Below, in pieces: positions 7,137 through 63,007 of a stretch of 64,000 bases of DNA; within the stretch, counting starts at the first letter, position 1; every line of letters starts with the position of its first letter. Under the pieces are notes generated by a model, which saw only the letters and a program-made list of their open reading frames with translations, searched no databases and had not been told where the DNA came from. The stretch covers positions 629,589-693,588 of the forward strand of contig AP024675.1 of NCBI GenBank assembly GCA_025998875.1, in the 5' to 3' direction. The translations under genes were made by a program, and so were the position numbers. This stretch comes from Bacteroidota bacterium (GTDB lineage Bacteria > Bacteroidota > Rhodothermia > JANXDC01).

Positions 7137-7146
7137 ATATGCCCCC

Positions 7147-8181: not shown

Positions 8182-8189
8182 CTGGCCTG

Positions 8190-8229
8190 TGAAAATACCA
8201 CGAAGGGCTCGAGCGCGCTCGAGCCCTTC
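8190..8229 (-). terminator. intrinsic terminator/attenuator between rplT and pheS
   Basis: Perfect 28-nt palindrome GAAGGGCTCGAGCGCGCTCGAGCCCTTC. On the minus-strand transcript it is followed by GUGGUAUUUUCAC. It sits between the L20 stop and the pheS ATG. Confidence 0.55.
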
Positions 8230-8253
8230 GCATAGCCAACATCATGGGCGCGC

Positions 8254-8601
8254 TCAATGCAAAGCGGCTTCCACCACCGCGGCAAAGGCCTGGGGATCGC
8301 GCACGGCCAGATCGGCCAGCATCTTGCGGTTAAGCGCCATCCCTTTTTTGCGCATGGCATCGATCAGGCGGGCATAGGTGGTGCCATGCGCTCGGGCGGC
8401 GGCGTTGATGCGTATAATCCAGAGGCGACGAAAATCCCGCTTCCGCTGGCGGCGGTCGCGGTACATGTACTGCATCGCCTTCTCAACGCTGTATTTGGCG
8501 ATCGTGTAGTTTTTGCTGCGCCTGCCCCAGAAACCTTTGGCCTGCTTGAGGATTTTCTTGCGTCGGCGCCTGGAGGCCACACTGTTCGTTGCGCGTGGCA
8601 T
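8254..8601 (-). CDS. rplT: 50S ribosomal protein L20
   Basis: 115 aa [28 protein letters not shown]... is classic L20. ATG verified at 8601; the track ORF extends further upstream. An AAGGAG Shine-Dalgarno lies upstream. Confidence 0.95.
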
Positions 8602-8636
8602 GTCTGGCCTGCTCCTTCTTTTGTCTGACGGCGAAC

Positions 8637-8831
8637 TCAAACAGCCAGCAGCCGCCTGATGCGGGGCACGTCGACGGAGGCCACCACATCGGCCTGGCGG
8701 AGGCGGCGCTTGCGCTTGGGCCGCTTCTTGGTAAGCAGATGGCTGTGCCCGGCCCGATAGCGACGGATCTTGCCCGTGGCGGTAACCCGGAAACGCTTCT
8801 TGGCCGAGCTGTTGCTTTTCATCTTCGGCAT
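8637..8831 (-). CDS. rpmI: 50S ribosomal protein L35
   Basis: 64 aa [24 protein letters not shown]...; ATG verified at 8831. Confidence 0.9.
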
Positions 8832-8892
8832 CGCTGTCCTCTCTGGCGAGTACGGCGGGAATCCAAAGATAGCCATCCAGAGCCGAGCTTGT

Positions 8893-8935
8893 CAAAAAAA
8901 CGAGCCCGACCCTTGCTCGTGCGACACCGGCGGGC
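8893..8935 (-). terminator. putative attenuator hairpin in the infC-rpmI spacer
   Basis: GC stem (AGCCCG...CGGGCU) overlapping the infC stop, followed on the minus transcript by a UUUUUUU run. Confidence 0.35.
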
Positions 8936-9438
8936 TATTTCTTCTTTCTATCGGGTGTGAGGATCATGCTCAGCCGCTTGCCTTCCAGTTTGGGAGGCAC
9001 CTCGATCCTGCTGACATCCTCGAGTGCCTGGGCAAAGCGGGCCAGCATCTCCTCCCCCCGTTCCTGATAGACGATGTCCCGACCCCGGAACTGAACGTAG
9101 ACGCGCACTTTATTGCCCTCAAGCAGAAACTCGCGCGCATGACGGGCCTTGAAGGCGAAATCGTGCGTGTCCGTGACGGGCCGCAGCCGGATTTCCTTGA
9201 CCTCCGTGCTCTGCTGCCGCTTGCGCGCCTCGCGCTCTTTTTTCTGCTGCTCGTACCGGAATTTCCCGTAGTCGATGATCTTGCACACCGGGGGGTCTGC
9301 ATGCGGGGCGATCTCCACGAGATCCAACCCCAGCTCGCGCGCCATCTCCAGGGCCTTTTCCCGCGTGTAGATGCCATGCCTGCCGTCCGGGGAGACCACC
9401 CGAACCACGCGGGCCCGGATCTGCTCGTTGACGCGCAC
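8935..9438 (-). CDS. infC: translation initiation factor IF-3
   Basis: RVNEQIRARVVRV...EIAPHADPPVCKIIDYGKF...KEIRLRP... aligns with IF-3. The track start at 9438 is GTG; an in-frame AUA lies 9 codons upstream. The true start is uncertain. Confidence 0.9.
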   Translation of the reverse strand: MRVNEQIRARVVRVVSPDGRHGIYTREKALEMARELGLDLVEIAPHADPPVCKIIDYGKFRYEQQKKEREARKRQQSTEVKEIRLRPVTDTHDFAFKARHAREFLLEGNKVRVYVQFRGRDIVYQERGEEMLARFAQALEDVSRIEVPPKLEGKRLSMILTPDRKKK

Positions 9439-13990: not shown

Positions 13991-14387
13991 GCTCACCATA
14001 CCGAGCCGTACAGAGGCCCTGGCCCGAGTACGCCGGTTTGTGCGTCGAAAAGCCCTGCGCATGGGCTTCACGGAAGAGGCCGTCGACCAGATCGTGATCG
14101 CCGTCGATGAGGCCTGCTCGAACATCATCCGGCACGCTTACGGGGGAGATCCCGCCCAGCAGATCCAGATCGTCGTCGACACCTATCCAGATCGGCTTGA
14201 GATCACGCTCTCCGACCAAGGACGGCGTTTTGATCCGAGCACATACCGGGAACCCGATCCGCAGAAGCTGGCCCGTTCCGGCCAGCGAGGGGGTCTGGGC
14301 CTGCTCCTCATGCGCCGCCTCATGGACGAGATCCAGTACGACTATCGGGATGAGTTCAACATTGTTCGGCTGATCAAATACCTATGA
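13965..14387 (+). CDS. anti-sigma regulatory factor Ser/Thr kinase (RsbW/SpoIIAB-like, HATPase_c)
   Basis: 140 aa; ...AVDEACSNIIRHAYGG...QGRRFDP...GGLGLLLMRRLMDE is GHKL kinase-like. It overlaps the STAS gene by 26 nt. Confidence 0.8.
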   Translation: MPKPRNRSELTIPSRTEALARVRRFVRRKALRMGFTEEAVDQIVIAVDEACSNIIRHAYGGDPAQQIQIVVDTYPDRLEITLSDQGRRFDPSTYREPDPQKLARSGQRGGLGLLLMRRLMDEIQYDYRDEFNIVRLIKYL

Positions 14388-16066
14388 CCCCACCCCTCTG
14401 GAACGTCCCTCCGCGCTACGATCTGGACTCCCTGCTGGAGACCAGTCGGCTTCTTGTGGGCTCGCTGGATGCGGACTTTATCCTGGACAACCTGCTCCGG
14501 ATCGCCATGGCCAAGGTGCTCACCTCCCGGGGGGTAATCCTGCTCCGCCAATCCGCAAACCGGTTCCGCGTGGCCCGTGCCCGAGGGATTCCGGACTGGA
14601 GTCCGGGAGCCGAACTTGAGCTGCCCGAAGCATGGCCCCCGAAGGATGGCCGCCTGCATCTGCCGGAATCCCTCCGAAAGCGGGGCCTTGTGTCCTGTTT
14701 TCTGCTGCGAAGCGGACAGGGGTTGCTCGGCCTGCTCGGCCTGGGACCCAAGGCGACCGGAGAACCCTACTCCAGCTATGAGGCCCAGTACATCGAGGCG
14801 CTAGCCAACATCACGGCCATGGGGCTGGAGAACGCCTTCGCCGTCAACCGGCTCCGAGAAATGAACCGGACCCTGGACCGACGCGTGCACGAACTGGAAA
14901 CGCTGCTGGATCTGAGTCGGGCGCTCAACAGCACCCTGGATCGAGAGGTCCTGCTCAAGCGGATCGGCTATACGCTCATGGGCCAGCTGCTGGTGGCCCG
15001 GTTTGCGATCCTGTTCCGCCCCCCGAATCGCCCGACAACCGTGTTGCTGGAACGCGGCCTTGCGCAAGCGCTCTCTGCCGAGCTCATCCCGGAAAGCTGG
15101 CTGCAGGAACCCCGTCCCCGCCGCATCGATCCCGACAGTGCGCTGGCCGCCTGGGGGCTGGAATGGATGGTGCCCATCTGGCTTTCCGATGGCCCGCGCG
15201 GGGTGCTCCTGTTGGGCAGTCGTGCCACGGGCGACCCGTTCGAGGAACAGGAGATCCGCTTTCTGGAGGCCGCCGCCCAGCTGGCCGGTATCGCGCTGGA
15301 GAACACCTATTTGTTTGAGGCGCACCTGGAAAAACAGCGCCTGGAGGAGGAACTGCACATCGCCCGACGCATTCAGCAGGGGCTGCTGCCGCGAACCATA
15401 CCCGATATACCGGGCTGCGAACTGGCCGCTTACTTGCACCCCGTGCGTCCGGTGGGGGGAGACTATTACGACGTACTGCCCCTTGAAGGCGGGCGATTCC
15501 TGCTGGCCGTCGCCGATGTGACAGGAAAAGGGGTGCCAGCCGCTCTGCTCATGGCCAACCTGCAGGCTATGTTGCATGTGCTGGCCCCCATTCCCATGTC
15601 TCTTGAAGAGGCCACAGCGCGCATCAACCGCATTATCTGCCACAATACGGATCCAGGTACCTTTATCACGTTCTTCTGGGGGATCCTCAATCCGGCTGAG
15701 CGCACCTTGCAGTATGTCAATGCCGGTCACGTCCCCCCGCTCCTTGTGCGCGCCAACGGCGACATCGAGGAACTCACCACCGGAGGCCTGCTCCTGGGCG
15801 TCATGGCGGAAACCGGAGCCTATGAGAGTCGAACCATCCAGCTACGTACGGGGGACACCCTGCTGCTCTACACCGACGGCCTTACGGAAACGTGCGATCC
15901 ACAGGGAAACTGCTACGATGAGGACCGCCTGCGGGCCACACTGTCCCGTCTGCGCCACGTACCCGCCTCCCTGCTGATCGAAGCGCTTCTCAGCGATGTG
16001 CGCGCATTCAGCGGAAAAGAAGATTTCGACGACGACCTGACCTTGCTTGTCCTGCGCCTTCTGTAG
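14384..16066 (+). CDS. GAF-domain PP2C-type phosphatase (RsbU/RsbP-like), soluble paralog
   Basis: 560 aa; the GAF regions and PP2C motifs (ARRIQQGLLP...VGGDYYDV...VADVTGKGVPAALLMANLQ...DGLTE) are paralogous to the 11556 gene. ATGA overlap with the upstream kinase. Confidence 0.8.
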   Translation: MTPPLWNVPPRYDLDSLLETSRLLVGSLDADFILDNLLRIAMAKVLTSRGVILLRQSANRFRVARARGIPDWSPGAELELPEAWPPKDGRLHLPESLRKRGLVSCFLLRSGQGLLGLLGLGPKATGEPYSSYEAQYIEALANITAMGLENAFAVNRLREMNRTLDRRVHELETLLDLSRALNSTLDREVLLKRIGYTLMGQLLVARFAILFRPPNRPTTVLLERGLAQALSAELIPESWLQEPRPRRIDPDSALAAWGLEWMVPIWLSDGPRGVLLLGSRATGDPFEEQEIRFLEAAAQLAGIALENTYLFEAHLEKQRLEEELHIARRIQQGLLPRTIPDIPGCELAAYLHPVRPVGGDYYDVLPLEGGRFLLAVADVTGKGVPAALLMANLQAMLHVLAPIPMSLEEATARINRIICHNTDPGTFITFFWGILNPAERTLQYVNAGHVPPLLVRANGDIEELTTGGLLLGVMAETGAYESRTIQLRTGDTLLLYTDGLTETCDPQGNCYDEDRLRATLSRLRHVPASLLIEALLSDVRAFSGKEDFDDDLTLLVLRLL

Positions 16067-26698: not shown

Positions 26699-27883
26699 TC
26701 AATCCTCGATACGGCGCAGCTCAACACGGCGCTGCAAACGCAGGGAATCCCCCATGGTTCCCTCCCAGGATCCCTCCAGGAAGACCACATCACCCCGCTC
26801 TGGATCCCAGCTCAGGCGCACCTGTCCTTCGGGCAGGGCCCTTCCGCGCTGACGGGGCCGAAGATGCAGCCAGGAGTGATCTTCGTCGATGTTCCCGGAA
26901 AAGAACCACAGACCATAGGCCCATCCCGCTTGCCCCTCCCGTTCTCCCCATTCTCTCCATTCGGCCATCTGCGGCCCGAAAGCCCAGAATAGGTCTTCCG
27001 GCAACAGAGGAATGGGCACCTGAGTACGGACAGACCACGCATGGACATCGGCGCTGAAGCGGATGGTGCCGAGCCGCATATCCAGCCGGCCAACGAGCAC
27101 GCGATCCCGGCCGGGCTGCCAGAAATCCGGTCCTCTCCATCCCCATCCGGATGGGGCCGAAACCAGCTCGAAGCCCTCTCGGGGATCTCCGAAGAGGTAG
27201 AATTGCCGTTCCAGCTCCACCCAGCCATCCCGGTACAGCACCGCACGCGTGCGCGCAAAAGCCGGGGGCAGTCCATCCAGACGCAGACGCCCTCCCGGAT
27301 CCCTATCCAGCTCCAGGCCCAGAAGCAAGATCTCAACCCCGATGCGGTCATACCCCGCATAGATGACCCGCATACGGAAGTGTGTCTCCACATCCAGCCG
27401 GATTTTCTTGACCGCACGCCCTCGTCCCACCTCCAGATACACGATCTGGCGATATCGATATACACCGCTCCAGCGGGGGCCGAAATGCGTCCACGCAGGA
27501 GGCAGATAGACGCGCACGCGCCATTCCCACCAAGGTCGGTGGGCGACGATCGTGCAGGCGAACGAGCGACACTGCCGGCAATAGCGCTGCTCCCCACGCG
27601 CCTGCGTCTGCGATTGCGAGCCGCGCGCCGATCGGTTCGAGGCGGCCTGATCCGACGGCCAGGCTGGGGGCTGGGCCATGGGAACATTTTGTCCCCGCGC
27701 TCGCTCAGGAGCCCATACGACGGAGGAAGGCCGGCTCGGATCCCGCGGCGGAGCCCAGTACCCGTCCCGGGAACGAATCCGCTCCAGGTCTATACGCCGA
27801 GTTCTCAGGGTGTCTTCATCGACCGGATGCCGATACATCACGCTCCCCAGAACCAGCCACGCAAAGACAAGCATCCCGCACAT
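26699..27883 (-). CDS. hypothetical Trp/Arg-rich protein with N-terminal signal anchor
   Basis: A long ORF with no motif I recognise. I chose the start at ATG 27883 (MCGMLVFAWLVLGSVM...). The track start at 28051 would overlap the divergent cdd start. Confidence 0.4.
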   Translation of the reverse strand: MCGMLVFAWLVLGSVMYRHPVDEDTLRTRRIDLERIRSRDGYWAPPRDPSRPSSVVWAPERARGQNVPMAQPPAWPSDQAASNRSARGSQSQTQARGEQRYCRQCRSFACTIVAHRPWWEWRVRVYLPPAWTHFGPRWSGVYRYRQIVYLEVGRGRAVKKIRLDVETHFRMRVIYAGYDRIGVEILLLGLELDRDPGGRLRLDGLPPAFARTRAVLYRDGWVELERQFYLFGDPREGFELVSAPSGWGWRGPDFWQPGRDRVLVGRLDMRLGTIRFSADVHAWSVRTQVPIPLLPEDLFWAFGPQMAEWREWGEREGQAGWAYGLWFFSGNIDEDHSWLHLRPRQRGRALPEGQVRLSWDPERGDVVFLEGSWEGTMGDSLRLQRRVELRRIED

Positions 27884-28039
27884 GGCAACATCCTTTCGAC
27901 AGAAGACGCGCGTTTTTTCTTCAGAGAGCATGCCAGTCGTGGCAAATACCTGCTGAGGTTGTATTTTCTCCGAGTGGGGATCGTACCGCTGTCCGACTTT
28001 CCGGACAGCTCTGTCCCCCGCACAGAAGGAAAAACGACG

Positions 28040-28834
28040 ATGCAAGAGCATACCTTCGAGGTTCTTCGCCAGGCCGCTCGCCGGGCTGCCGAGCGGAGTT
28101 ATGTGCCCTACAGCAGGCGTCCTGCGGGATGCGCACTCTGGACGCGCTCTGGAACCCTGATCCTGGGCGCTCGGGTGGAAAACGCTTCCTATGGGCTGCT
28201 CATCGACCCCCTACAGAACGCCCTCAGCACGGCCTTTGCCTACGGGGAAAGGGATGTGGTCGCCGTAGCGCTCACGGAACCCTGCACGCTGGCCGATCTG
28301 GATCTGTGTGCGGGCTGGTTAGAGGAGGCCTGGATCGTGGACCCTGAGGGGGTAGGTCTGCTCTCCGAGCGGACTGGCCGCTCTGTATCGGTCACGGTGG
28401 CGTTGCCCGAGGCATGGCGTGAGCTGGATCCTTTTCTGCCCGCCCATTCGGACACCGACGGCCTCTCTCTGGCCCGGAAGGCGGCCCGGCAAGCTTATGC
28501 TCCGGAGTCCGGCTTCCGGGTAGGCTGTGCGCTACAGACAGCCGACGGGCGATGGCTTCTGGGCTGCAACGTGGAGCAACGCAATTGGCGTCACGTGCTC
28601 TGTGCGGAGCGTAACGTCCTGAGCACCTGGATATCCTACCGAGGGGCTCCGGTTACGGCGCTGTACATCTGCACCGCCGAGGCCGCTTACTGTCCTCCCT
28701 GCGGGGCCTGTCGGCAGGTGATGGCCGAACTGGCCCCGGAGGCCGAGGTCGCGCTGGCCGGGGGTGTGCACACCTCGAGCGCCGCGCTGCTGCCCCTCTC
28801 CTTCCATCCCGGTCTGCTCATCGGACAGCCATGA
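28040..28834 (+). CDS. cdd: tandem-domain cytidine deaminase: N-terminal ligand-less pseudo-domain plus C-terminal catalytic domain
   Basis: The C-terminal half carries CAERN and PCGACRQ zinc/catalytic motifs. The N-terminal half has the CDA fold pattern (...YVPYS...GARVENASYGL...) but lacks the Cys/His/Glu ligands. ATG verified at 28040. Confidence 0.75.
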   Translation: MQEHTFEVLRQAARRAAERSYVPYSRRPAGCALWTRSGTLILGARVENASYGLLIDPLQNALSTAFAYGERDVVAVALTEPCTLADLDLCAGWLEEAWIVDPEGVGLLSERTGRSVSVTVALPEAWRELDPFLPAHSDTDGLSLARKAARQAYAPESGFRVGCALQTADGRWLLGCNVEQRNWRHVLCAERNVLSTWISYRGAPVTALYICTAEAAYCPPCGACRQVMAELAPEAEVALAGGVHTSSAALLPLSFHPGLLIGQP

Positions 28835-52434: not shown

Positions 52435-53076
52435 TCAGGCTACCGCTCGCTCGATCGCTTCCAGCAGATAAGACTCCGGAACGGCGCCTTCGATGTGCTC
52501 GCGGTCGTTAATTACCGTCTTGGGCACGCCATAGACCTGATATCGGCTGGCCAGATGGGGAAACTCGATGGCCTCTACCATAGAGGCCTGGATGTTCGGA
52601 TTCAGATAGGCGAAGCGGAAAGCGCTCACCACCGCCCGCGGACAATACGGACACGTAGGGGTGACAAATACCTGTAGGTTCACCGGTTTCTGGATCCCGC
52701 GCACCCGTTCGACGATATCCTCGGGCAGATGCGTGTTTCCCGTGGATACAAGCCGGATAGCTTCCAGCAGGCTGGCAAACTCGTATCCCGAGGGAATCCC
52801 GTAGAACCGAATCCCGTAATCGCTTTCCCCCATCACCACGGTGGCCGGTATCTTGTCGATCCCGTAGGAGTTGGCCCGCTGGCGATCGAGCATGAAGTTG
52901 TAGACCTCCAGGGAGATCTGATCAGAAAGTGCGGCGACCTCTTCGAGTAGCTGGCGGGTCTCCCGGCAGTATTCGCACTCCAGCTCCTGGGTGAAGTAGA
53001 CCAGTCGCACCGGGTTTACCAGTCCGGACAGCTCTTGACGTACCAGTTCGCGCTCCCTTTCGCGTAGCAGGGTCAT
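52435..53076 (-). CDS. protein disulfide oxidoreductase, glutaredoxin-like with two thioredoxin folds (PfPDO-like)
   Basis: Two CxxC motifs (CEYC and CPYC) spaced as in Pyrococcus PDO; 213 aa. ATG verified at 53076. Confidence 0.7.
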   Translation of the reverse strand: MTLLRERERELVRQELSGLVNPVRLVYFTQELECEYCRETRQLLEEVAALSDQISLEVYNFMLDRQRANSYGIDKIPATVVMGESDYGIRFYGIPSGYEFASLLEAIRLVSTGNTHLPEDIVERVRGIQKPVNLQVFVTPTCPYCPRAVVSAFRFAYLNPNIQASMVEAIEFPHLASRYQVYGVPKTVINDREHIEGAVPESYLLEAIERAVA

Positions 53077-53093
53077 CGGGGTATCTCCTCTTG

Positions 53094-53444
53094 TTAGTAG
53101 CGTCCATTCTCTACAGGCAATCCGGCCCGACGCCAGGCCAGAATCCCTCCACGGATGTTGTAGACGTTCCGGTAGCCCAGTTGCTGGGCCACCGCCTCGG
53201 CGACCATGGCGGATCGGTTTCCGGAACGACACAGAAACAGGAGCTCCGCCTCCTTATCCGGAGGCAGCCGGGATATATCGAATGCGCTCAGAGGCAGGTG
53301 TAGCGCTCCGGGCACGGCGCCCTGCTCGTGCAACTCCTCCTTTTCCCGCACATCCACCAGCCAGGCGCCTCGCTGAAAACGCGCATAAGCCTCCTGCGGA
53401 GAGAGCTCTTCATACCCCTTTGGGGTCCAGAACCACCCACTCAT
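53094..53444 (-). CDS. single-domain rhodanese-like sulfurtransferase
   Basis: 116 aa; active-site loop CRSGNRS. Confidence 0.8.
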   Translation of the reverse strand: MSGWFWTPKGYEELSPQEAYARFQRGAWLVDVREKEELHEQGAVPGALHLPLSAFDISRLPPDKEAELLFLCRSGNRSAMVAEAVAQQLGYRNVYNIRGGILAWRRAGLPVENGRY

Positions 53445-53995
53445 CTGTATCCTCCTGTGTTGGGTTTACTCTTCCCCTGTTGCCGGGCCAGCAGGCGGGC
53501 CACGGCGCGCTCCAGATAGGGCAGCGCCGACACATCGCGCATCCCGGCCCTGCGGGCCTCGGCCAGCGCCTGCTCGGCAGACAGCCCCTTAAAACGCAGA
53601 TAGCCGTAATAAAGCTGTGCGGACCGATTGCCGGATCGGCAGTGCATAAAGATGGGTCCTGGGCTCTCCTCCAGGGCGCGCACAAAACGCGCCAGCACCT
53701 CCGGGGTAATCGTCTCCGGCCCTCCTACGGGGATGTTCACGTAGCGCAGCCCGAGCCGACGGGCCACCTCGGCCTCATCAAAAGGACGCCGCTCCTCGGG
53801 AAGGCGATTGTCGATCACGGTCCGGTATCCCGCCCTGCTCAGGGCGCGCAACTGCGCCTCCGTGGGCTGCCCACCGCAGGCCAGCCCGGGGCGCAGCAGC
53901 ACCCCATTGGGGATATCCTGAGGCAAGCCAGAATCCTGGACCCCTGTTCCAGCACCGAACACGAACATCAGAATACCGATGAACCACGCGCGCAT
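53441..53995 (-). CDS. DUF442/phosphatase-like (CX5R) sulfur-metabolism accessory protein, putatively exported
   Basis: Signal-peptide-like N-terminus MRAWFIGILMFVFGAGTG, then HCRSGNRS in a PTP-like fold. This domain is commonly fused or adjacent to persulfide dioxygenases (Blh). Confidence 0.55.
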   Translation of the reverse strand: MRAWFIGILMFVFGAGTGVQDSGLPQDIPNGVLLRPGLACGGQPTEAQLRALSRAGYRTVIDNRLPEERRPFDEAEVARRLGLRYVNIPVGGPETITPEVLARFVRALEESPGPIFMHCRSGNRSAQLYYGYLRFKGLSAEQALAEARRAGMRDVSALPYLERAVARLLARQQGKSKPNTGGYR

Positions 53996-54118
53996 AGGGT
54001 TTACCCCGTGTACTTGTGCCCTTTCGATGCAACCGGGTAGCGAAGATGTCATCGGGTTGTGTACTCCGGGGGGAATACGTATTTTCTCCGCGTTTGCCTA
54101 CCTCCTGGGTGGAAGGCT

Positions 54119-54415
54119 ATGAAGCAAAAAGCAGAACAGCTGACCCTTTCGCACATCGAGGATCGAAAGGAAATTCTGCGTCGCCTGGCCCGGATCGAGG
54201 GCCAGATCCGCGCTCTACAGCGTCTGATCCAGGAAGAGGCCGACTGCGCCACAATCATACAGCAGATGATGGCCGCCCGCCAGGCGGTGCATAAAACCTT
54301 TGCCGAGCTGATGGCCCGCCTGCTCACGCGGGAGTGCCTGCTAACGGAACACCTCTCCGAAGAAGAACGCCAGAACCTGGGCCATCTGGCCGATCTGATT
54401 CGCCGTTATCTGTAA
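54119..54415 (+). CDS. CsoR/CstR-family (DUF156) transcriptional repressor with two Cys
   Basis: 98 aa; ...RLARIEGQIRALQRLIQEEADCATIIQQMMAARQAVHKTFAELMARLLTRECLL... (Cys in EADC and RECL). ATG verified at 54119. Confidence 0.7.
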   Translation: MKQKAEQLTLSHIEDRKEILRRLARIEGQIRALQRLIQEEADCATIIQQMMAARQAVHKTFAELMARLLTRECLLTEHLSEEERQNLGHLADLIRRYL

Positions 54416-54463
54416 ACGCCGGACAGGTGTCCGACCCGAAAATACCCGCAGCGGCTCGGATGT

Positions 54464-54492
54464 CTTGACTTTTTAGTCGGACCTCTATACTA
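54464..54492 (+). promoter_or_regulatory. sigma70-like promoter plus GGGGGTAT-containing pseudo-palindrome upstream of the rhodanese-MBL gene (coordinates +/-1)
   Basis: TTGACT, 15-17 nt, TATACT/TACTAT. The ATACTATAGGGGGTAT overlap resembles CsoR-type operators. An upstream inverted repeat CGGACAGGTGTCCG lies at about 54420-54434. Confidence 0.4.
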
Positions 54493-54524
54493 TAGGGGGT
54501 ATCCGGTCAGGAGGTCTTCCACCT

Positions 54525-55709
54525 ATGGAATGGAAAACTCAGTTCACCCCCGAGGAAGTGGCCGAGCTGCTGGAACGAGGCGTTGGCTTCGGCGTGCTGG
54601 ACGTACGCAATGAAGAGGAATTCCGGCGCTGGCGCCTGGAGGGGCCAAACACCCCCCAAACCCTGCATATCCCCTACTTTGAGGCGCTGGAGGATGAGGA
54701 GGCCTTCGTCTCTCGCGTAGAGGCCGAGCTGGGTCGGGGGCCCATCCTAGCCATCTGCGCCAAGGGAGGATCATCGGACTGGATCGCCCAGGAGATCCTG
54801 CGGCCCCGGGGCTTTCAGGTCGCGAACATGATCGGGGGCATGGAGGCCTGGGGATCTAGCTATCGCATTCGCCTGCTTCCGGAATCCAAACAGGATACGG
54901 TGCGCATCTGGCAGCTGGATCGCTTCGGCCGGGGGTGCCTGCATTACGTAGTTGCCTCGGAAGGCGAAGCGATCCTTATCGATCCCCCTCGGCATATCGA
55001 GCGCGTACTGGAGCTCCTGTCGCGGGAAGGGCTACAGATCCGGGCCATTCTGGACACGCACGCCCATGCCGATCACATCTCCGGAGGCCCCGCGCTGGCG
55101 GAACGGACCGGCGCTCCTTACTATCTGCATCCCTACGACGGCATCCACCCTATCGACGTGCTTCCGGCTCAGATCCCGTTTGCCTTTCTGCAAGAGGGCA
55201 TGCGCTTTTCGGTGGGCTCGGCCGCCCTAGACGTTCTGCATATACCCGGCCACACGCTAGGCAATACGGCTTTTCTTCTGCAGGGGCAGAAGCGCTACCT
55301 CTTTACGGGGGATAGCCTCTTCATCCAGAGCGTTGCGCGGCCTGATCTGGGCGGTCGGGGGGAGGCGTGGGCGCCTCTGCATTTCCGATCCCTGCGTCGG
55401 CTGCTTCATCTTCCGGCGGATACGATCGTCCTGCCGGGCCATTACGCCTCGGCCGCGCGGGAGCAGCGCGCCGATGGCCTCTTTGCCGCCCCGCTGGGCG
55501 AGTTGCTCAGGAGCAACCCCGATCTGGCTCTGCAAGAGGAGGAAGCCTTTGTTTCCTATATCCTGGCCCACCTTCCGGAGTTTCCCCCGCAGTACGTGGA
55601 TATCAAACGGGTAAACGCCGGGCTCCTGCGACTGGATGAGGAGGGCCTCAACGAACTGGAGCTGGGCAAAAACGTCTGCGCGCTCTCGGGTGCTTATACA
55701 ACATCATAA
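54525..55709 (+). CDS. rhodanese-MBL fusion, persulfide dioxygenase-like (CstB/Blh-like)
   Basis: N-terminal rhodanese with CAKGGSS loop; C-terminal metallo-beta-lactamase fold with HAHADHISGG (HxHxDH). Confidence 0.75.
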   Translation: MEWKTQFTPEEVAELLERGVGFGVLDVRNEEEFRRWRLEGPNTPQTLHIPYFEALEDEEAFVSRVEAELGRGPILAICAKGGSSDWIAQEILRPRGFQVANMIGGMEAWGSSYRIRLLPESKQDTVRIWQLDRFGRGCLHYVVASEGEAILIDPPRHIERVLELLSREGLQIRAILDTHAHADHISGGPALAERTGAPYYLHPYDGIHPIDVLPAQIPFAFLQEGMRFSVGSAALDVLHIPGHTLGNTAFLLQGQKRYLFTGDSLFIQSVARPDLGGRGEAWAPLHFRSLRRLLHLPADTIVLPGHYASAAREQRADGLFAAPLGELLRSNPDLALQEEEAFVSYILAHLPEFPPQYVDIKRVNAGLLRLDEEGLNELELGKNVCALSGAYTTS

Positions 55710-55722
55710 AGGAGGCTCCGCC

Positions 55723-55983
55723 ATGGGGGAGATCGTCGTAGCCAGGGAACTCGACGTCCGCGGCCTACAGTGTCCCATGCCCCTGGTCAACGCACACCGG
55801 GCGATCAAGCAGATCGCCGTGGGCGAGGTGCTCAAAGTGCTGGCCACGGATCGGGGCTCGCTTTTGGACTTTAAGGGCTGGGCGGAAACAGACGACTCCG
55901 TCGAGTTGCTCCAGCAGGAAGAATATACCGACGAGCAAGGACGACGGGTGTACGTGCACTACCTGCGACGGGTAGAACCCTGA
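55723..55983 (+). CDS. tusA: TusA/SirA-like sulfur carrier
   Basis: 86 aa; LQCPMP (CPxP) motif. GGAGG Shine-Dalgarno; ATG verified at 55723. Confidence 0.8.
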   Translation: MGEIVVARELDVRGLQCPMPLVNAHRAIKQIAVGEVLKVLATDRGSLLDFKGWAETDDSVELLQQEEYTDEQGRRVYVHYLRRVEP

Positions 55984-56007
55984 ATAACCAGGGAGGAGGA
56001 GAGCATC

Positions 56008-56592
56008 ATGGCCGAAGCCATTGCCCAGGATCTGGAGACCCGCCTCCAGGAGCTCACCCAACGCCTGGAAGCGCTGGAGAGCCGCTATGAAAAAGACATG
56101 CGCCGCATCCAGCGGCACCTACCGGAGAACCGGGTGGCGATCATCTGCTTCAGCGGTAATCTGGACAAGGCCATGGCCGCGCTGATCATCGCCACCGGCG
56201 CGGCCTCAATGGGCATGCAGGTCTCGATTTTCTTCACCTTCTGGGGCTTGAGCGTGATCAAAAATGGCGCCCAGCTGCGGGGCAAATCCTTCATGGAAAA
56301 GCTCTTCAGCATCATGCTCCCGGAGAACATGCGCGAGCTCGGCCCCTCTCAGATGAACTTCGGCGGCATTGGCGCGCGTATGATGCGGGCCATTATGCGC
56401 AAAAAGCAGGTTCAGTCCCTCGAGGAGCTCTTCCAGCTGGCCCGTGAGCTGGGAGTTCGCCTGGTGGCCTGCACGATGAGCATGGATGTGATGGGCATCC
56501 GGGCCGAGGAACTGCTTCCCGGCATGGAGCTGGGTGGGGTGGCCACCTACCTGGCCGATGCCTCCAAATCCAAAGTCACGCTGTTTATCTAA
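56008..56592 (+). CDS. DsrE/DsrF-family (DsrE3/COG2210-like) sulfur carrier with N-terminal coiled-coil extension
   Basis: ...RVAIICFSGNLDKAMAALIIATGAASMGMQVSIFFTFWGL...LVACTMSMDVMG (conserved Cys). Confidence 0.65.
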   Translation: MAEAIAQDLETRLQELTQRLEALESRYEKDMRRIQRHLPENRVAIICFSGNLDKAMAALIIATGAASMGMQVSIFFTFWGLSVIKNGAQLRGKSFMEKLFSIMLPENMRELGPSQMNFGGIGARMMRAIMRKKQVQSLEELFQLARELGVRLVACTMSMDVMGIRAEELLPGMELGGVATYLADASKSKVTLFI

Positions 56593-56643
56593 CAGCGCGA
56601 CCCATTCGGACCGCTCACAGAGCCTCAGGAGAGGAGGGCGGGG

Positions 56644-58317
56644 ATGAACTATGGTTTCATCATCGATAACCGTAAGTGTATCGGCTGTCATGCTTGCACG
56701 GTGGCCTGCAAGGCGGAGCACGAAATCCCGCTCGGCGTCAACCGCACCTGGGTCAAATACGTCGAAAAGGGGCGCTATCCGAACACGCGGCGCTTGTTTG
56801 CCGTGCACCGGTGCAACCACTGCGCCGAGGCCCCGTGTGTGGAGATCTGCCCCGTAGAGGCGCTCTTTGTGCGCCCCGACGGGATCGTGGATTTCGATAA
56901 CGCCCGCTGCATCGGGTGCAAGTCCTGCATGCAGGCCTGTCCTTATGATGCGCTCTATATCGATCCGGAGACGCACACGGCGGCCAAGTGCAATTTCTGC
57001 GCGCATCGTATTGACCTGGGTCTGGAACCGGCCTGTGTGGTGGTCTGCCCGGAACATGCCATCATCGCCGGGGATCTGGACGATCCCCACTCGGAGATCA
57101 GCCAGCTTCTGGCCCGCGAACAGGTCCAGGTGCGCAAACCGGAAAAGGGCACCCTGCCCAAGCTCTGGTACATCGATGGGGACGAGGCCTCCCTAGATCC
57201 CCTGGCCACCCGGCGAGAGACGGAATACTTCTGGAGCGAACAGGCCACCGGGGTGGGGCATTTTGCCCGCTATGCGGAGATGCGGCAGGCGAACCGGGAT
57301 CCGGATCAGCTCCTCTATCAGCTGGCCGTCTTGCCCTCGGACTGGGCCCGTGCTGAGGCCCGGGTAGCCGAGGAGCTACGCCGTGAAGACGGACAGCGGG
57401 CCATGGGCGATCCCCTGCTCCGGATGCAGGAGGCCGTCTACGGGCAGAGCCCGGCCAGGCGCACCTATGACACCCCCTCGAAAGGGGTGCTCTGGGGATG
57501 GGAGGTTTCCGGATACATCTGGACAAAGGCCATTGCCGCGGGTGCGTTTCTGGTGCCGTTTCTTCTGCAGGATCTGGGCCTTGTCCGACTCGGCCCCGTG
57601 GCGGAATGGGTCGCCTGGGGGGTTGCCCTCCTGTTTTTGTTGCTGACCGGACTGCTATTAATCAAAGACCTGGACCGACCCGATCGGTTTCTGTACGTAT
57701 TGCTTCGCCCTCAGAAGCGTTCCTGGCTCGTCAAGGGCGCCTATATCCTTACCGGCTACGGAGCGGCCCTGGCCCTGTGGGGGGTATCACGCTGGCTGGA
57801 AAGCCCCGAACTGGGTTGGCTGGCCCGCCTGACGGGTTATCTGGGCGCCCTGGGCGCGGCCACATATACGGCCTTTTTGTTTGCTCAGGCCAAGGGGCGG
57901 GACTTCTGGCAGAGCCCCATGCTTGCCCCGCACATGCTTCTGCACGCCCTGCTGGCCGGAGGATCGGTGGGACTGCTCCTGGCCTGGGGTTTCGGCCTAG
58001 ATGCAACCCCCTTCGGCTGGGTTACCGCCTTCTCGGGGGCAGCAGGGCTCCTGATAGTAGCCATAGAGCTGGCTATGCCGCATCCCACACGGGATGCTCA
58101 TCTGGTGGCCCAGATCATCATGCGCGGCTACTATCGCCGGCTGTTCTGGCATACCGTGCTCTGGGGACACCTGCTGCCCGTAGTCGGGCTTTTCCTCGGA
58201 CTCTGGCTCGGTTGGCCTGTGGCCCTGTTGGCCCTGCTGGGCCTGATACTGCTTGTGGCCGTGCTGCCCATCGAGCACCTCTGGGTGCGCGTGCCTCAGC
58301 TCATCCCCCTGGCCTGA
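56644..58317 (+). CDS. fusion of a 4x[4Fe-4S] ferredoxin-type subunit (PsrB/SoeB-like) with an NrfD/PsrC-like polytopic membrane anchor
   Basis: N-terminal about 200 aa with four Cys clusters (CIGCHACTVAC, CNHCAEAPCVEICP, CIGCKSCMQACP, CNFCAHRIDLGLEPACVVVCP). C-terminal about 310 aa with about 8 TM helices. A single uninterrupted frame with a GGAGG Shine-Dalgarno. Confidence 0.7.
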   Translation: MNYGFIIDNRKCIGCHACTVACKAEHEIPLGVNRTWVKYVEKGRYPNTRRLFAVHRCNHCAEAPCVEICPVEALFVRPDGIVDFDNARCIGCKSCMQACPYDALYIDPETHTAAKCNFCAHRIDLGLEPACVVVCPEHAIIAGDLDDPHSEISQLLAREQVQVRKPEKGTLPKLWYIDGDEASLDPLATRRETEYFWSEQATGVGHFARYAEMRQANRDPDQLLYQLAVLPSDWARAEARVAEELRREDGQRAMGDPLLRMQEAVYGQSPARRTYDTPSKGVLWGWEVSGYIWTKAIAAGAFLVPFLLQDLGLVRLGPVAEWVAWGVALLFLLLTGLLLIKDLDRPDRFLYVLLRPQKRSWLVKGAYILTGYGAALALWGVSRWLESPELGWLARLTGYLGALGAATYTAFLFAQAKGRDFWQSPMLAPHMLLHALLAGGSVGLLLAWGFGLDATPFGWVTAFSGAAGLLIVAIELAMPHPTRDAHLVAQIIMRGYYRRLFWHTVLWGHLLPVVGLFLGLWLGWPVALLALLGLILLVAVLPIEHLWVRVPQLIPLA

Positions 58318-58336
58318 GAGAAGGAGGTATTCGCCT

Positions 58337-61225
58337 ATGGCCAAATCCTGGATAGAGCGCGCCGCCGAAGCTCTGCGCCTGATCCCCCGAATCGACTCCA
58401 ACGGAAGTACCCCCCTGCCCCGACTTGAGCCCGGTTCGGGGTTGCGTTCCTACCCCCCGAGGGAGCGCTGGAATCACTGGGAAGAATATGACCCTCGGGC
58501 CTGGCCCCGGAAGCGCAAACGGGCCTACATGCTTGTGCCCACCATCTGTTTTAACTGCGAAGCCGGATGCGGCCTGTTGGCCTATATTGACAAGGAAACC
58601 GGACAGGTGCGCAAACTGGAGGGCAATCCCTACCACCCCGGTTCGCGCGGCCGTAACTGCGCAAAAGGGCCGGCTACGATCAACCAACTCACCGATCCGG
58701 ATCGTATCCTCTATCCTCTGCGCCGCAAAGGCGAGCGAGGATCCGGTCAATGGGAGCGCGTATCCTGGGAAGAAGCCCTGGAGGATATCGCCGCCCGGAT
58801 CCGCCGCGCGCTCGAAGAGGGACGCAACAACGAAATCGTCTACCATGTGGGCCGACCGGGCCACGAGGGATACATGGAACGCGTGCTGGGGGCCTGGAAC
58901 GTAGACGGACATAACAGCCATACGAACATCTGCTCTTCCGGGGCCCGCTTTGGATACGCCATCTGGCAGGGATACGATCGGCCCTCCCCGGATCACGCCA
59001 ATGCCCGCTTTATCCTGCTGCTGAGTTCCCATCTGGAGACGGGCCATTACTTCAACCCCCACGCCCAGCGCATCATCGAGGGCATGATGCGCGGAGCCAA
59101 GCTGGCGGTTATGGACCCCCGGCTCTCGAACACAGCCAGTATGGCCGACTACTGGCTGCCGACCTATCCGGGCTCCGAAGCCGCTGTACTGCTGGCCATG
59201 GCGCGCATCCTGCTCCTGGAGGGTCGATACGATCGGGAATTCCTGGAGCACTGGGTCAACTGGCACGATTACCTCAACGCCCGACATCCCCAGCGACCGC
59301 GCACCTTCGAGGCCTTCATCGAAGCGCTCCTGGAAGAATATGCCCTCTTCACCCCGGAATTCGCCGCCCGGGAGGCCCAGATCGATCCTGAGCTCATCAT
59401 CGCCGTAGCCCGGGAGATCGGCGAGGCCGGATCCCGCTTTGCCACCCACAACTGGCGCTCGGCCTCCAGCGGCAACCTGGGTGGCTGGACTGTGGCGCGC
59501 GCGCTGCATTTTCTCAACGTCCTTACCGGATCGGTCGGCACCTATGGTGGCACCAGCCCGAGCGCCTGGAACAAGTTCAAGCCCATCGTGCCGCATGCCC
59601 CGCCGGCCACCCGATTCTGGAACGAGCTCCATTTCCCCCTGGAGTATCCGCTGGCCCACTACGAGATGAGCTTCCTACTGCCACACTTCCTCAAGGAGGG
59701 GCGCGGCCGGCTGGAGGTTTACTTTACGCGCGTCTTCAATCCCGTATGGACGTATCCGGACGGCTTTTCCTGGATCGAGGTGTTGCGGGATGAATCCAAA
59801 ATCGGCCTGCATGTAGCCCTGACCCCCACGTGGAACGAGACGGCCTACTGGGCCGACTACGTCCTGCCCATGGGACATGCCTCCGAACGACACGATATCG
59901 TCAGCTACGAAACCCATTCCGGCATCTGGATAGGCTTTCGCCAGCCCGTACTGCGCGAAGCGCTTCGCCGGCAGGGCAAACCGGTCCGCTTCACCTACGA
60001 AGCCAACCCCGGAGAAGTCTGGGAAGAGGACGAATTCTGGATTGAGCTCTCCTGGCGTATCGATCCCGAAGGCCGTCTGGGCATCCGGAAGCACTTCGAA
60101 TCCCCCTATCGTGCCGGGGAGAAGATGACTATTGAAGAATACTACCAGTACGTCTTCGAGCACGTGCCCGGCCTTCCGGAAGCGGCCGCCCGGGAAGGGC
60201 TTACCCCCCTGGAATACATGCGCCGCTACGGAGCCTTCGAGGTGAAAAAGCACGTCTACGAGAAACACCTCGATCCGGTGCCCGAAGAGCTGGCCCGCCA
60301 GGCGGAAATCGATCCGGAAACCCATATCGCCTACGTACATACGGACAGCGGGGAGCGACAGGCCATCGGGGTATACTACCAGGGCCAGATCCGCACGGGA
60401 TTTCCTACCCCCACGCGCAAACAGGAGTTCTACTCGCAGACCATGGTCGACTGGGGATGGCCAGAATACGCCATCCCGACCTATATCAAAAGTCATGTGC
60501 ATCCGGAACGGATTAACCGGGACAACAACGAGTTCGTCCTGGTGCCCACGTTCCGTTTGCCCACACTCATCCACACCCGCAGCGGTAACGCCAAGTACCT
60601 GGTGGAGATCTCCAACCGAAACCCGATCTGGATACACACCCGCGATGCGGAGCGCATCGGGGTGAAAACGGGAGACCTGGTGCGAGTCACCACGGAGATC
60701 GGCTACTTCGTCGATCGCGTCTGGGTCACGGAGGCGATTAAACCCGGCGTGGTGGCCTGCTCGCACCATATCGGGCGCTGGCGACGGGAACAGGATCCGC
60801 CGGGCAACCGATGGGCCACCAGCACCGTGCGGATCGAGGAAATCGCGCCCGGTCAGTGGCGCATGCAACAGGTCCGGGGGGTGGAGCCGTTTGTCAGTTC
60901 CGACCCCGACTCCAGGCGCATCTTCTGGCGGGATGGCGGAGTGCATCAGAACATCACGCACCCCGTACACCCGGATCCCATTTCGGGCATGCACTGTTGG
61001 CACCAGTGGTGCCGCATCGAGAAGGCCAGACCGGAGGACCGCTACGGAGACGTGTTCGTGGACACGAACAAATCTTTTGCCGTCTACCGGCAGTGGCTGG
61101 CCATGACGCGCCCGGGTCCGGGTCCCGGAGGACTGCGCCGGCCCCTGTGGCTGAACCGGCCGTTTCGGCCCGCCCCAGAGACCTTCTATGTAACCTCAGA
61201 GGCGCAATCACCGCCAGAGAGCTGA
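58337..61225 (+). CDS. molybdopterin (DMSO-reductase-family) oxidoreductase catalytic subunit without Tat signal (SoeA-like)
   Basis: 962 aa; N-terminal CFNCEAGCG...C [4Fe-4S] motif and the molybdopterin dinucleotide-binding domain pattern. No RRxFLK motif. Strong GGAGG Shine-Dalgarno; ATG verified at 58337. Confidence 0.75.
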   Translation: MAKSWIERAAEALRLIPRIDSNGSTPLPRLEPGSGLRSYPPRERWNHWEEYDPRAWPRKRKRAYMLVPTICFNCEAGCGLLAYIDKETGQVRKLEGNPYHPGSRGRNCAKGPATINQLTDPDRILYPLRRKGERGSGQWERVSWEEALEDIAARIRRALEEGRNNEIVYHVGRPGHEGYMERVLGAWNVDGHNSHTNICSSGARFGYAIWQGYDRPSPDHANARFILLLSSHLETGHYFNPHAQRIIEGMMRGAKLAVMDPRLSNTASMADYWLPTYPGSEAAVLLAMARILLLEGRYDREFLEHWVNWHDYLNARHPQRPRTFEAFIEALLEEYALFTPEFAAREAQIDPELIIAVAREIGEAGSRFATHNWRSASSGNLGGWTVARALHFLNVLTGSVGTYGGTSPSAWNKFKPIVPHAPPATRFWNELHFPLEYPLAHYEMSFLLPHFLKEGRGRLEVYFTRVFNPVWTYPDGFSWIEVLRDESKIGLHVALTPTWNETAYWADYVLPMGHASERHDIVSYETHSGIWIGFRQPVLREALRRQGKPVRFTYEANPGEVWEEDEFWIELSWRIDPEGRLGIRKHFESPYRAGEKMTIEEYYQYVFEHVPGLPEAAAREGLTPLEYMRRYGAFEVKKHVYEKHLDPVPEELARQAEIDPETHIAYVHTDSGERQAIGVYYQGQIRTGFPTPTRKQEFYSQTMVDWGWPEYAIPTYIKSHVHPERINRDNNEFVLVPTFRLPTLIHTRSGNAKYLVEISNRNPIWIHTRDAERIGVKTGDLVRVTTEIGYFVDRVWVTEAIKPGVVACSHHIGRWRREQDPPGNRWATSTVRIEEIAPGQWRMQQVRGVEPFVSSDPDSRRIFWRDGGVHQNITHPVHPDPISGMHCWHQWCRIEKARPEDRYGDVFVDTNKSFAVYRQWLAMTRPGPGPGGLRRPLWLNRPFRPAPETFYVTSEAQSPPES

Positions 61226-61237
61226 GCGCTGGCCGCG

Positions 61238-63007
61238 ATGGGGCATCCCTCGGAAGACCGGATCCATCTGGCCCCGTTTCTGAAGGATCTGCGCGCTTAT
61301 ACGTGGGGCACGTTTCGGATGGACCTGCAGGCGGGCCTCACGGTGGCCGTCTTCGCTGTGCCGCAGGTCATGGCCTATGCTATCCTGGCTGGCCTTCCCC
61401 CTACCTACGGGCTCTATGCGGCTATCACAACCGCAGCCATAGCGGCCCTCTGGGGCAGCTCCCCGTATGTGAACACGGGCCCCACGAACTCAGCCGCCCT
61501 CCTGACGGCAGGCGCGCTGGCCGCCTTCGCCGGCGATCCAGACTTCCTGGGGATCGTGTTCTTTTTTACCCTGCTGACAGGCCTCATCCGGATGGCTCTG
61601 GGCCTGCTGCGGCTGGGCAACCTGATCGATTTCGTACCCGAGTCGGCCTTTCTGGGCTTTACGATGGGCGCCGGCGTGCTCATCGGACTGGGCCAGTTCC
61701 ATCATCTGCTCGGCGTGGAGGCCTCCTCGAACGCGTGGTTCCCCGGGCGCATCTGGGATACGCTCGCCCGCTTTCCGGAAGCCAATCCGTATGCCCTCTC
61801 CATCGGCCTGGGAACAGCCGTTCTGCTTCTCGCCCTGGAACGCTACAACCGGTACTTTCCCGTTGCCCTTGGGGTCATCGGGCTGGGCACGCTGGGAGCC
61901 TGGCTGTGGGCTGAGGGGAAGCTGACCCTGGTGCGGGACGTCAGCCCCATACCGCGACAGCTCCCCCATTGGGAACTGCCCGCACTCCGATTCGATCTGC
62001 TCGACGAGCTCCTGCCTGGCGCGATGGCCGTGGCCCTTCTGGGCTTGATCGAGGCGGTTTCCATCGGCCAGACGCTTGCGCTCAAGCGCGGAGAGCGACT
62101 CAACTTCAATCAGGAATTTTTCGGCCAGGGCCTGAGCCATGTGGTAGCCGCTTTCTTTCAGGGCATTCCGGGTTCGGGCTCCTTTAGCCGTTCGGCCCTC
62201 ATCGAGCAAGCCGGAGGACAGACCCGCTTTGCCAATGTGGCCTATGCGGCCTGGATCGCTCTGGCTGTGCTCACGATAGCCCCCCTGCTGGAACGCATCC
62301 CGATCGCCTCGCTGGCTGGCTTATTGCTCTACATCGGTTATCGGCTCATCGACCTGCGTCGGCTCAAGCAGACATGGGCCATCTCGCGCTCCGATACCCT
62401 GGTGCTCGGCATCACGTTTCTCGTCACCGTGGGCTATCGAATCGAACTGGGCATCTTCTCCGGACTCCTTGTCGCCCTGATCATGTTTCTACGCCGGGCC
62501 CGTATCCTGCACCTGTTTGAGCTGCTCCCCCAGCAGGGGGGATCGTTCGCAGAGGTATCCTACCTGCCCGATCGAACCCACGAGCCCAGCGGACTGGTGG
62601 CCCTGGGCGTCTATGGGGACCTGTTTTTCGCCGTCGCCCAGGAATTGCGCACGCAACTACAGCAGATCGTGGAACTGCAGAAGCCACGCGTGATCGTGCT
62701 GCGCACCCGAGGCGCCCGCTCGATCGATTACTCCTGCTGGAACGCGCTCTTCGAGTTCGCTACATACTTCCACCGCCGAGGGGGCCGGCTTGTGCTTGTG
62801 GGCCTGCGGGAAGACTATTGGCGCATCATCCGGGATGCCGGCATGGATTCCGTACTACCCCCGCAACAGCTCTACCCAGCAGGCCATTCCCTGCTGGCCT
62901 CCTTTCAAGGCGCGCTGCGGGACTGGTTGCCCCGCGTCGATGCGGAGACGCTTTCCCCCGCCTGGCGGGCCTATCGGGATGCGCTCGTGGCCTCGACGAC
63001 CTCTTGA
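61238..63007 (+). CDS. SulP-family anion (sulfate) permease with C-terminal STAS domain
   Basis: ...AVPQVMAYAILAGLPPTYGLYAA... SulP signature; about 11 TM helices plus STAS. Confidence 0.85.
   Translation: MGHPSEDRIHLAPFLKDLRAYTWGTFRMDLQAGLTVAVFAVPQVMAYAILAGLPPTYGLYAAITTAAIAALWGSSPYVNTGPTNSAALLTAGALAAFAGDPDFLGIVFFFTLLTGLIRMALGLLRLGNLIDFVPESAFLGFTMGAGVLIGLGQFHHLLGVEASSNAWFPGRIWDTLARFPEANPYALSIGLGTAVLLLALERYNRYFPVALGVIGLGTLGAWLWAEGKLTLVRDVSPIPRQLPHWELPALRFDLLDELLPGAMAVALLGLIEAVSIGQTLALKRGERLNFNQEFFGQGLSHVVAAFFQGIPGSGSFSRSALIEQAGGQTRFANVAYAAWIALAVLTIAPLLERIPIASLAGLLLYIGYRLIDLRRLKQTWAISRSDTLVLGITFLVTVGYRIELGIFSGLLVALIMFLRRARILHLFELLPQQGGSFAEVSYLPDRTHEPSGLVALGVYGDLFFAVAQELRTQLQQIVELQKPRVIVLRTRGARSIDYSCWNALFEFATYFHRRGGRLVLVGLREDYWRIIRDAGMDSVLPPQQLYPAGHSLLASFQGALRDWLPRVDAETLSPAWRAYRDALVASTTS

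Follow-up and report, generated by a model that had tools for sequence, protein, structure and literature searches.

SoeABC, the sulfite dehydrogenase of Allochromatium vinosum and Aquifex aeolicus, is supported by experiment and faces the cytoplasm; its subunit A has no twin-arginine translocation (Tat) signal, and its membrane subunit, SoeC, is predicted to be inverted (PMC8076601, PMC5114278). A survey of the NrfD family lists SoeC for Proteobacteria, a few Clostridia, and Aquificae alone and mentions no fused forms (PMC8076601). In green sulfur bacteria, polysulfide-reductase-like complex 3 (PSRLC3) is encoded by two genes (PMC5473276) and, according to a passage in another article, is "inferred to be sulfite oxidase" (PMC9324843). 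Here, we analyze a 64,000-nucleotide stretch of DNA from a Bacteroidota bacterium (contig AP024675.1, positions 629,589 to 693,588 of the forward strand; hereafter, the window), in which a single gene, BC, encodes both an iron-sulfur (Fe-S) subunit B and a membrane anchor C of NrfD/PsrC-like type, and is followed by the gene of a catalytic subunit A. The proposal that PSRLC3 oxidizes sulfite reportedly goes back to Frigaard & Bryant 2008 and Gregersen et al. 2011. By analogy with SoeABC, BC and A probably form a two-gene, cytoplasm-facing complex iron-sulfur molybdoenzyme that acts as a sulfite:quinone oxidoreductase. A search of the open literature, which did not extend to the primary PSRLC3 papers, returned no paper that uses the name "SoeBC" or explicitly describes the fusion.

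Domain structure of BC and its partner, subunit A

BC (56644..58317, plus strand) is an ATG-initiated open reading frame (ORF) of 557 codons, with a purine-rich, Shine-Dalgarno-like stretch, AGGAGAGGAGG, on its 5' side. Both domains are read in a single frame, as had been claimed in the initial annotation of this DNA: Pfam matches to Fer4_11 (residues 51-144, E = 1.6e-23) and to NrfD (PF03916, residues 280-514, E = 3.5e-15) follow one another without a frame change. The B domain (residues 1-210, 56644..57273) is collinear, over residues 3-179, with residues 4-180 of Thermus thermophilus PsrB (2vpw_B, E = 4.7e-50). Its 16 cysteines make up the four complete motifs that had been noted earlier (CxxCxxCxxxC-type; C12/15/18/22, C57/60/65/69, C89/92/95/99, and C116/119/131/135), corresponding to four predicted [4Fe-4S] clusters, and all 16 are conserved without exception in two alignments, one of 24 and one of 119 homologues. 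The ~60-residue linker that follows (residues ~211-272, 57274..57459) varies widely in length and sequence across homologues, with large insertions and deletions in alignment columns ~215-300. It is in frame, and the entry into the first transmembrane (TM) helix is conserved in the 24-homologue alignment.

The NrfD/PsrC-like domain occupies residues ~273-557 (57460..58314). AlphaFold2 was run twice on the whole of BC, using the alignments of 24 and 119 sequences. The C-terminal part was modeled with a predicted local distance difference test score (pLDDT) of ~98 and contains 8 TM helices (residues 286-310, 318-342, 361-385, 388-416, 427-450, 455-477, 498-522, and 526-553), the number that had been estimated from the sequence; both termini of the domain are predicted to lie on the side of the Fe-S domain. 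Foldseek matched this part to PsrC (2vpw_C, TM-score 0.70 on the target) and to ActC of alternative complex III (E = 2.5e-6), so that its kinship with the NrfD family, on which the earlier reading depended, is borne out by both sequence and fold. The linker had low pLDDT, and the B domain reached values of 27-65 even with 119 aligned sequences, next to the ~98 of the adjoining anchor.

Subunit A (58337..61225, plus strand, 962 residues) has an N-terminal Fe4S4 motif and Pfam matches to Molybdop_Fe4S4, Molybdopterin, and Molydop_binding, as expected of a subunit with a molybdenum/tungsten bis(pyranopterin guanine dinucleotide) cofactor (Mo/W-bisPGD). Its gene starts at ATG 58337, 20 bases past the BC stop codon (TGA, 58315-58317), with AAGGAGG 7 nt upstream; the TTG at 58253, given as the start in a mechanical ORF list, was rejected in favor of this ATG. 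The cysteine of the segment NICSSG aligns with the cysteines of PsrA SLCTAP and ArrA SSVCAE, i.e., with the position of the molybdenum ligand. Subunit A is 63-76% identical between phyla, which suggests that one substrate is conserved across the family.

As read from the sequence, all features of a complex iron-sulfur molybdoenzyme are thus present: a four-cluster ferredoxin, a haem-free NrfD/PsrC anchor with 8 predicted TM helices, and an adjacent putative Mo/W-bisPGD subunit. Among solved structures, T. thermophilus PsrABC (PDB 2VPZ) is the best relative of all three modules, but it is a periplasmic, Tat-exported reductase made of three polypeptides, and PsrA is shorter than subunit A by ~200 residues. 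Compared by description, SoeABC shares several features with BC-A: in both enzymes, the Mo-bisPGD subunit lacks a Tat signal, the Fe-S subunit has four clusters, and the NrfD-type anchor is predicted to be inverted, and both are predicted to face the cytoplasm. SoeABC consists of three separate polypeptides, with genes in the order A-B-C, whereas the window encodes two, in the order BC-A. In this analogy, BC-A matches SoeABC on every feature tested except the number of subunits.

Proposed reaction and alternative substrates

BC and A belong to a cluster of seven genes that lie on one strand (54119-63007), with intergenic spacing of 13-110 nt. The first gene codes for a 98-residue repressor of the CsoR/FrmR/CstR family (54119..54415; Pfam Trns_repr_metal). 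It is followed by genes for a rhodanese-metallo-beta-lactamase fusion resembling persulfide dioxygenases (54525..55709; Pfam Rhodanese and Lactamase_B, weak NCBIfam matches to Blh/GloB), a TusA-family sulfur carrier (55723..55983; Pfam TusA, 5.2e-17), and a DsrE2-like sulfur-transfer protein (56008..56592; Pfam DrsE_2, 1.1e-55; NCBIfam DsrE2 below its cutoff). Downstream, 13 nt past A, lies a gene for a SulP-family anion permease with a STAS domain (61238..63007; Pfam Sulfate_transp, 1.2e-88, and STAS). All of these genes are on the plus strand.

The product that persulfide dioxygenases release in the cytoplasm is sulfite; sulfate or sulfite is transported by SulP and TauE. Because a cytoplasm-facing molybdoenzyme is placed here between a sulfite-releasing dioxygenase and SulP or, in other loci, TauE, sulfite:quinone oxidoreductase is the simplest reading of its function. 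In the pathway that we propose, the rhodanese-persulfide dioxygenase, TusA, and DsrE2 would deliver sulfane sulfur and oxidize it to sulfite, which would be converted to sulfate at the molybdenum site of A. Electrons would pass through five [4Fe-4S] clusters to quinone on the cytoplasmic side of the anchor, and SulP would export the anion. BC-A would then be the last oxidation step of a cluster controlled by a CsoR/CstR-type repressor, and would share with SoeABC both the proposed reaction and a role after cytoplasmic sulfite formation. If so, it would close the pathway from sulfide:quinone oxidoreductase (SQR) and persulfide dioxygenase to sulfate, and estimates of sulfite oxidation potential in metagenomes would change.

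To count recurrent neighbors, ORFs flanking BC-A in 81 loci were clustered. Metallo-beta-lactamase-rhodanese proteins were the commonest (27 loci), followed by SulP (next to BC-A in 25-26 loci), TusA and DsrE2 (8 each), halves of YeeE/YedE type (7), and SQR (5). Genes for the molybdenum cofactor (MoaD, MoaE, MoeB-like, MobA) recur as well. The Chlorobium locus contains BC, A, TauE, DUF1634, DsrE2, rhodanese, and TusA; that of Natrinema contains rhodanese, TauE, BC, A, Mrp/NBP35, and MobA, so that TauE/SafE stands in for SulP in both. The Rhodococcus RHA1 locus consists of three metallo-beta-lactamase genes, ArsR-type regulators, DsrE, TusA, BC, A, and Mrp/NBP35, and in Thermomicrobium roseum a CsoR-type regulator gene lies directly upstream of BC-A. 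These conserved sulfur-oxidation neighbors fit the comparison with a SoeABC-like sulfite dehydrogenase that had been made from the window sequence.

The green sulfur bacteria provide a close parallel. Chlorobiaceae encode a 517-residue protein with Fer4_11 and NrfD domains, 51-54% identical to BC, followed by a 953-residue A that is 66-67% identical to A of the window. These loci share with the window the BC and A genes and the neighbors DsrE2, rhodanese, and TusA, and have a TauE of their own. The window differs in coming from an organism outside the Chlorobi and in carrying a persulfide dioxygenase and a CsoR-type regulator in place of a Dsr-based pathway. Genes CT0494-0496 of C. tepidum, considered at one stage as PSRLC3, were dropped, as they are a three-gene psrABC cluster.

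Several points weigh against the proposed explanation as a whole. To our knowledge, the substrate of an enzyme of the DMSO reductase family cannot be read from its sequence, and our literature search found no biochemical or genetic characterization of any member of the fused family. The identification of the Chlorobiaceae genes with PSRLC3 is tentative, made by the two-gene count (exactly a fused BC and an A). Among named proteins, TtrB is the nearest to the B domain (48.5% identity), the order of genes B-C-A is that of ttrBCA, and the best solved relatives of A are the polysulfide reductase PsrA (1e-38) and the arsenate reductase ArrA (1.7e-35). No NCBIfam model reaches its cutoff for BC or A, and names given by IMG (from COG) and NCBI are generic: "4Fe-4S dicluster domain-containing protein", "NrfD/PsrC family ... 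anchor subunit", "molybdopterin-dependent oxidoreductase", and "anaerobic selenocysteine-containing dehydrogenase". At the low pLDDT given above, what AlphaFold2 predicts for the B domain and for its docking is not usable, and in two Acidobacteriota loci (L011 and L026) the fused gene has no adjacent A.

Some of the same observations would fit a different substrate. An enzyme with the same fused, cytoplasmic architecture might act, either as a quinol-dependent reductase or as a dehydrogenase, on another sulfur compound, such as tetrathionate, thiosulfate, polysulfide, or the protein-bound persulfide or thiosulfonate of TusA/DsrE2. The resemblance of B to TtrB, which is also its best-scoring NCBIfam model, the ttrBCA-like gene order, and the closeness of A to PsrA and ArrA all point in this direction. 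So do the adjacent TusA and DsrE2, which carry sulfane or thiosulfonate sulfur, and the fact that, besides sulfite, thiosulfate is formed by rhodanese-persulfide dioxygenase fusions of the Staphylococcus aureus CstB type. However, the commonest neighbors of BC-A are the sulfite-producing dioxygenase and the SulP/TauE anion exporters, the known reductases of this kind face the periplasm, as do the relatives with Tat signals found here, and the passage quoted above assigns sulfite oxidation to the two-gene complex of green sulfur bacteria (PMC9324843). The Ttr comparison itself has limits: BC scores 206 bits with the TtrB model, whose cutoff is 416, A scores 113 bits with TtrA against a cutoff of 1750, and A of the window carries no Tat signal. 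We therefore regard another sulfur compound as a rather unlikely substrate, albeit one to be taken seriously, and consider sulfite oxidation the better account of the BC-A loci.

Membrane orientation and relation to split enzymes

Lysines and arginines in the loops of the anchor were counted using helix boundaries from the AlphaFold2 model. In BC of the window, 12 such residues lie on the side of the Fe-S domain and 1 on the opposite side; the means over 24 family members are 13.5 and 0.25. According to the positive-inside rule, this bias puts both ends of the anchor and the Fe-S domain in the cytoplasm, and subunit A with them. BC begins just 11 residues ahead of its first Cys motif, no signal peptide is present on BC or A, and a twin-arginine motif is absent from A and from the N-termini of 16 orthologues, where the first 65 residues are a conserved hydrophilic segment. 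The initial annotation had deduced a cytoplasmic active site from missing twin-arginine signals; both the premise and the deduced topology hold. As predictions go, the data show that the Fe-S domain and the Tat-less A stay in the cytoplasm and that the NrfD domain inserts N-in, inverted relative to the periplasmic Psr/Ttr-type enzymes. Residues that do not vary in the anchor (such as K295, D342, R348, R355-P356, Y408-Q415, G418-Q423, H430, E475, H480, E544, W547, and P551-Q552) are located in or near B-side loops, and none is found in the opposite loops. The docking site of B and a quinone site near the last cluster would be expected at the cytoplasmic face, together with these residues.

We know of no route, Tat or Sec, for the export of a protein in which 8 TM helices follow a folded Fe-S domain. 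Periplasmic exposure of the complex, as in Psr, Ttr, and Dms, through export without a recognizable Tat signal is very improbable: most NrfD-anchored molybdoenzymes are periplasmic (PMC8076601), but the missing signal peptides, the short segment ahead of the first Cys motif, and the charge bias contradict this location, and a TorD-type chaperone is not among the recurrent neighbors of BC-A, unlike in the Tat-bearing split relatives.

These split relatives were the next-best full-length matches after fused orthologues (55-65% identity) in a tblastn search of a plasmid collection. A plasmid of Sulfurovum mangrovi encodes B (252 residues), C (NrfD, 322 residues, starting 1 nt past the stop codon of B), an A whose N-terminus contains the twin-arginine sequence SRRSFLKG, and TorD. 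Plasmid pAZKH of Azoarcus sp. KH32C likewise encodes B, C, A (with TRRTFLK), and TorD, and three further relatives (P0126, P0142, and P0152; 36-48% identity) are also Tat-bearing. The split systems, like TtrBCA, share with the window the order B, C, A and a homologous NrfD anchor; their B and A are 47-55% and 31-40% identical to the window proteins, and the motif PP.E.W...W, N-terminal to the Fe4S4 site of A, is common to the window, Sulfurovum, and P0126. They differ in having separate B and C genes, a twin-arginine A, and the TorD chaperone. BC is 55% identical to Sulfurovum B over residues 1-191 and 23% identical to Sulfurovum C over residues 261-557, and the charge bias of Sulfurovum C is the opposite one: by manual count on the alignment, 15 Lys/Arg lie in the opposite loops vs. 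5, and the same loops are uncharged in BC.

The Tat-bearing A gene of the Sulfurovum plasmid (~5830-7014 of the fetched locus), which is missing from the plasmid's annotation table, is disrupted: its reading frame changes at least twice, once past the signal peptide and again near 6956-7014. These changes may mark a pseudogene or stem from a sequencing error.

Among the relatives examined, a split layout goes with a Tat signal, TorD, and (in Sulfurovum C) an N-out bias, and the fused layout with the absence of Tat and a predicted N-in anchor. Fusion thus appears to accompany loss of export. In exported enzymes, B crosses the membrane through Tat already folded, as a passenger of A, and for this reason it could not be tethered to an anchor inserted by Sec. 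Retention of the enzyme in the cytoplasm would lift this constraint and make fusion possible, and loss of a single stop codon could then join B to C where the two genes lie side by side in a B-C-A operon. The Tat-exported, split, charge-inverted enzymes and the cytoplasmic, fused ones form a natural pair for studying the orientation of NrfD anchors.

The label "SoeB-SoeC", proposed for the window gene at the outset, is not established. No Soe model was matched in an NCBIfam search with BC and A, and no SoeABC entry was returned by PDB searches with the same proteins. Of the 150 best representatives, most were fragmentary members of the same family, and the names of ten that were looked up were uninformative. 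The plasmid-collection search yielded fused orthologues and periplasmic split relatives, with no candidate Soe operon recognized among them. The phyla for which SoeC is listed do not include those that carry the fused form (PMC8076601). It is possible, and we suggest it tentatively, that fused BC-A enzymes are not orthologues of SoeABC and constitute an independent, very widespread lineage of Bacteria and haloarchaea, which would have arisen from a periplasmic, Ttr-like B-C-A enzyme through loss of the Tat signal, inversion of anchor charge, and fusion of B to C, and which in many heterotrophs would provide the as yet unassigned sulfite-oxidizing step that follows SQR and persulfide dioxygenase. 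Were this the case, metagenomic surveys in which soeABC is scored as absent would give too low an estimate of direct sulfite oxidation, as no pipeline names BC-A.

Distribution of the fused form and other observations at the loci

The 120 best homologues listed are without exception fused proteins of 503-580 residues with both domains, and in a scan of one genome per GTDB species, relatives of BC are encoded in at least 595 species genomes. Carriers include Bacteroidota (among them Lutibacter aestuarii and Gaetbulibacter sp.), Acidobacteriota, Chlorobiaceae, Marinimicrobia, Planctomycetota, Gemmatimonadota, Spirochaetia, and Actinomycetota. In cultured strains with finished genomes, the fused gene lies beside A (Thermomicrobium roseum DSM 5159, TRD_RS12035/12030; plasmid pRHL3 of Rhodococcus jostii RHA1, RHA1_RS43840/43835; and Natrinema spp.). 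The closest named matches of the window proteins, 75% (BC) and 89% (A) identical, come from a Bacteroidetes metagenome-assembled genome (MAG). The fused form is still present where A is only 43% identical (P0124, a Myxococcota MAG), and a homologue search started from P0124 again yielded the fused family. In a large and widespread family, B and C are normally fused, and the window gene is a typical member of it. The initial annotation had considered the fusion structurally unusual; it is routine in relatives, and that part of the claim falls.

That the fusion results from a sequencing or assembly error, i.e., a stop codon lost or a frame shifted between B and C, has next to no probability: the a priori rarity of such fusions in textbook enzymes is all that speaks for it, and against it stand an identical 557-residue protein with the same neighbors in an independent Logan assembly of run DRR290133, the fused homologues and finished genomes just described, and an in-frame linker with a conserved entry into the first TM helix. 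A 557-residue protein of 98% identity was also found in a further database cluster.

The BC-A order that had been pointed out in the window is common: A lies directly downstream of BC on the same strand in 68 of 80 fetched loci. Of the remaining ones, nine are contigs that end too early, one (L050, a Krumholzibacteriia MAG) has A upstream, in the order A-BC, and two are the Acidobacteriota MAGs without A nearby. In L011, no catalytic gene is present within 3.8 kb of BC, and in L026, where the neighborhood is pdxJ, BC, DUF5009, and DinB, none is present within 8 kb.

Databases thus contain the fused family, and the green sulfur literature takes note of it, yet pipelines give it generic names. 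It deserves attention for its spread over at least 595 species genomes, many bacterial phyla, and complete haloarchaeal genomes, and for neighbors that are consistently genes of sulfide and persulfide oxidation.

Several further features of these loci were recorded. A gene for a Mrp/NBP35-family Fe-S cluster carrier directly follows A in Rhodococcus (L084, 8799-9968) and Natrinema (L086, 10947-12101; L087, 10812-11972), but not in the window; it may encode a dedicated maturation factor that takes the place of the TorD of exported relatives. The CsoR-family regulator of the window (54119-54415) has PDB matches to FrmR, CsoR, and Enterococcus faecalis CstR, with E values from 1e-7 to 1e-10. It contains two cysteines 30 residues apart (EADC...TREC), and a leucine is read four residues before the second one, at the position where copper-sensing CsoR has a histidine ligand. 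This pattern resembles that of the persulfide-sensing CstR. Directly upstream of the cluster, a divergent set of minus-strand genes (52435-54052) codes, according to Pfam, for a DUF442/BLH-phosphatase-like protein (53441-54052), a 116-residue rhodanese (53094-53444), and a thioredoxin-like protein (52435-53076), so that the sulfur-handling island extends over ~10.6 kb. A scan of the cluster for promoters and terminators was uninformative, and tRNA and Rfam scans of the window returned three tRNAs only.

Outside the sulfur island, a 597-residue ORF (27041-28834) has cytidine/deoxycytidylate deaminase domains confined to its C-terminal half (residues 337-567), with no Pfam match at E <= 1e-5 in the N-terminal ~330 residues. 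Two proteins with GAF and SpoIIE (PP2C-type phosphatase) domains are encoded on the same strand ~760 bases apart (11556-13622 and 14384-16066). In locus L026, a gene on the minus strand (5079-8990) encodes a 1303-residue DnaB helicase that is interrupted by intein splicing and LAGLIDADG domains.

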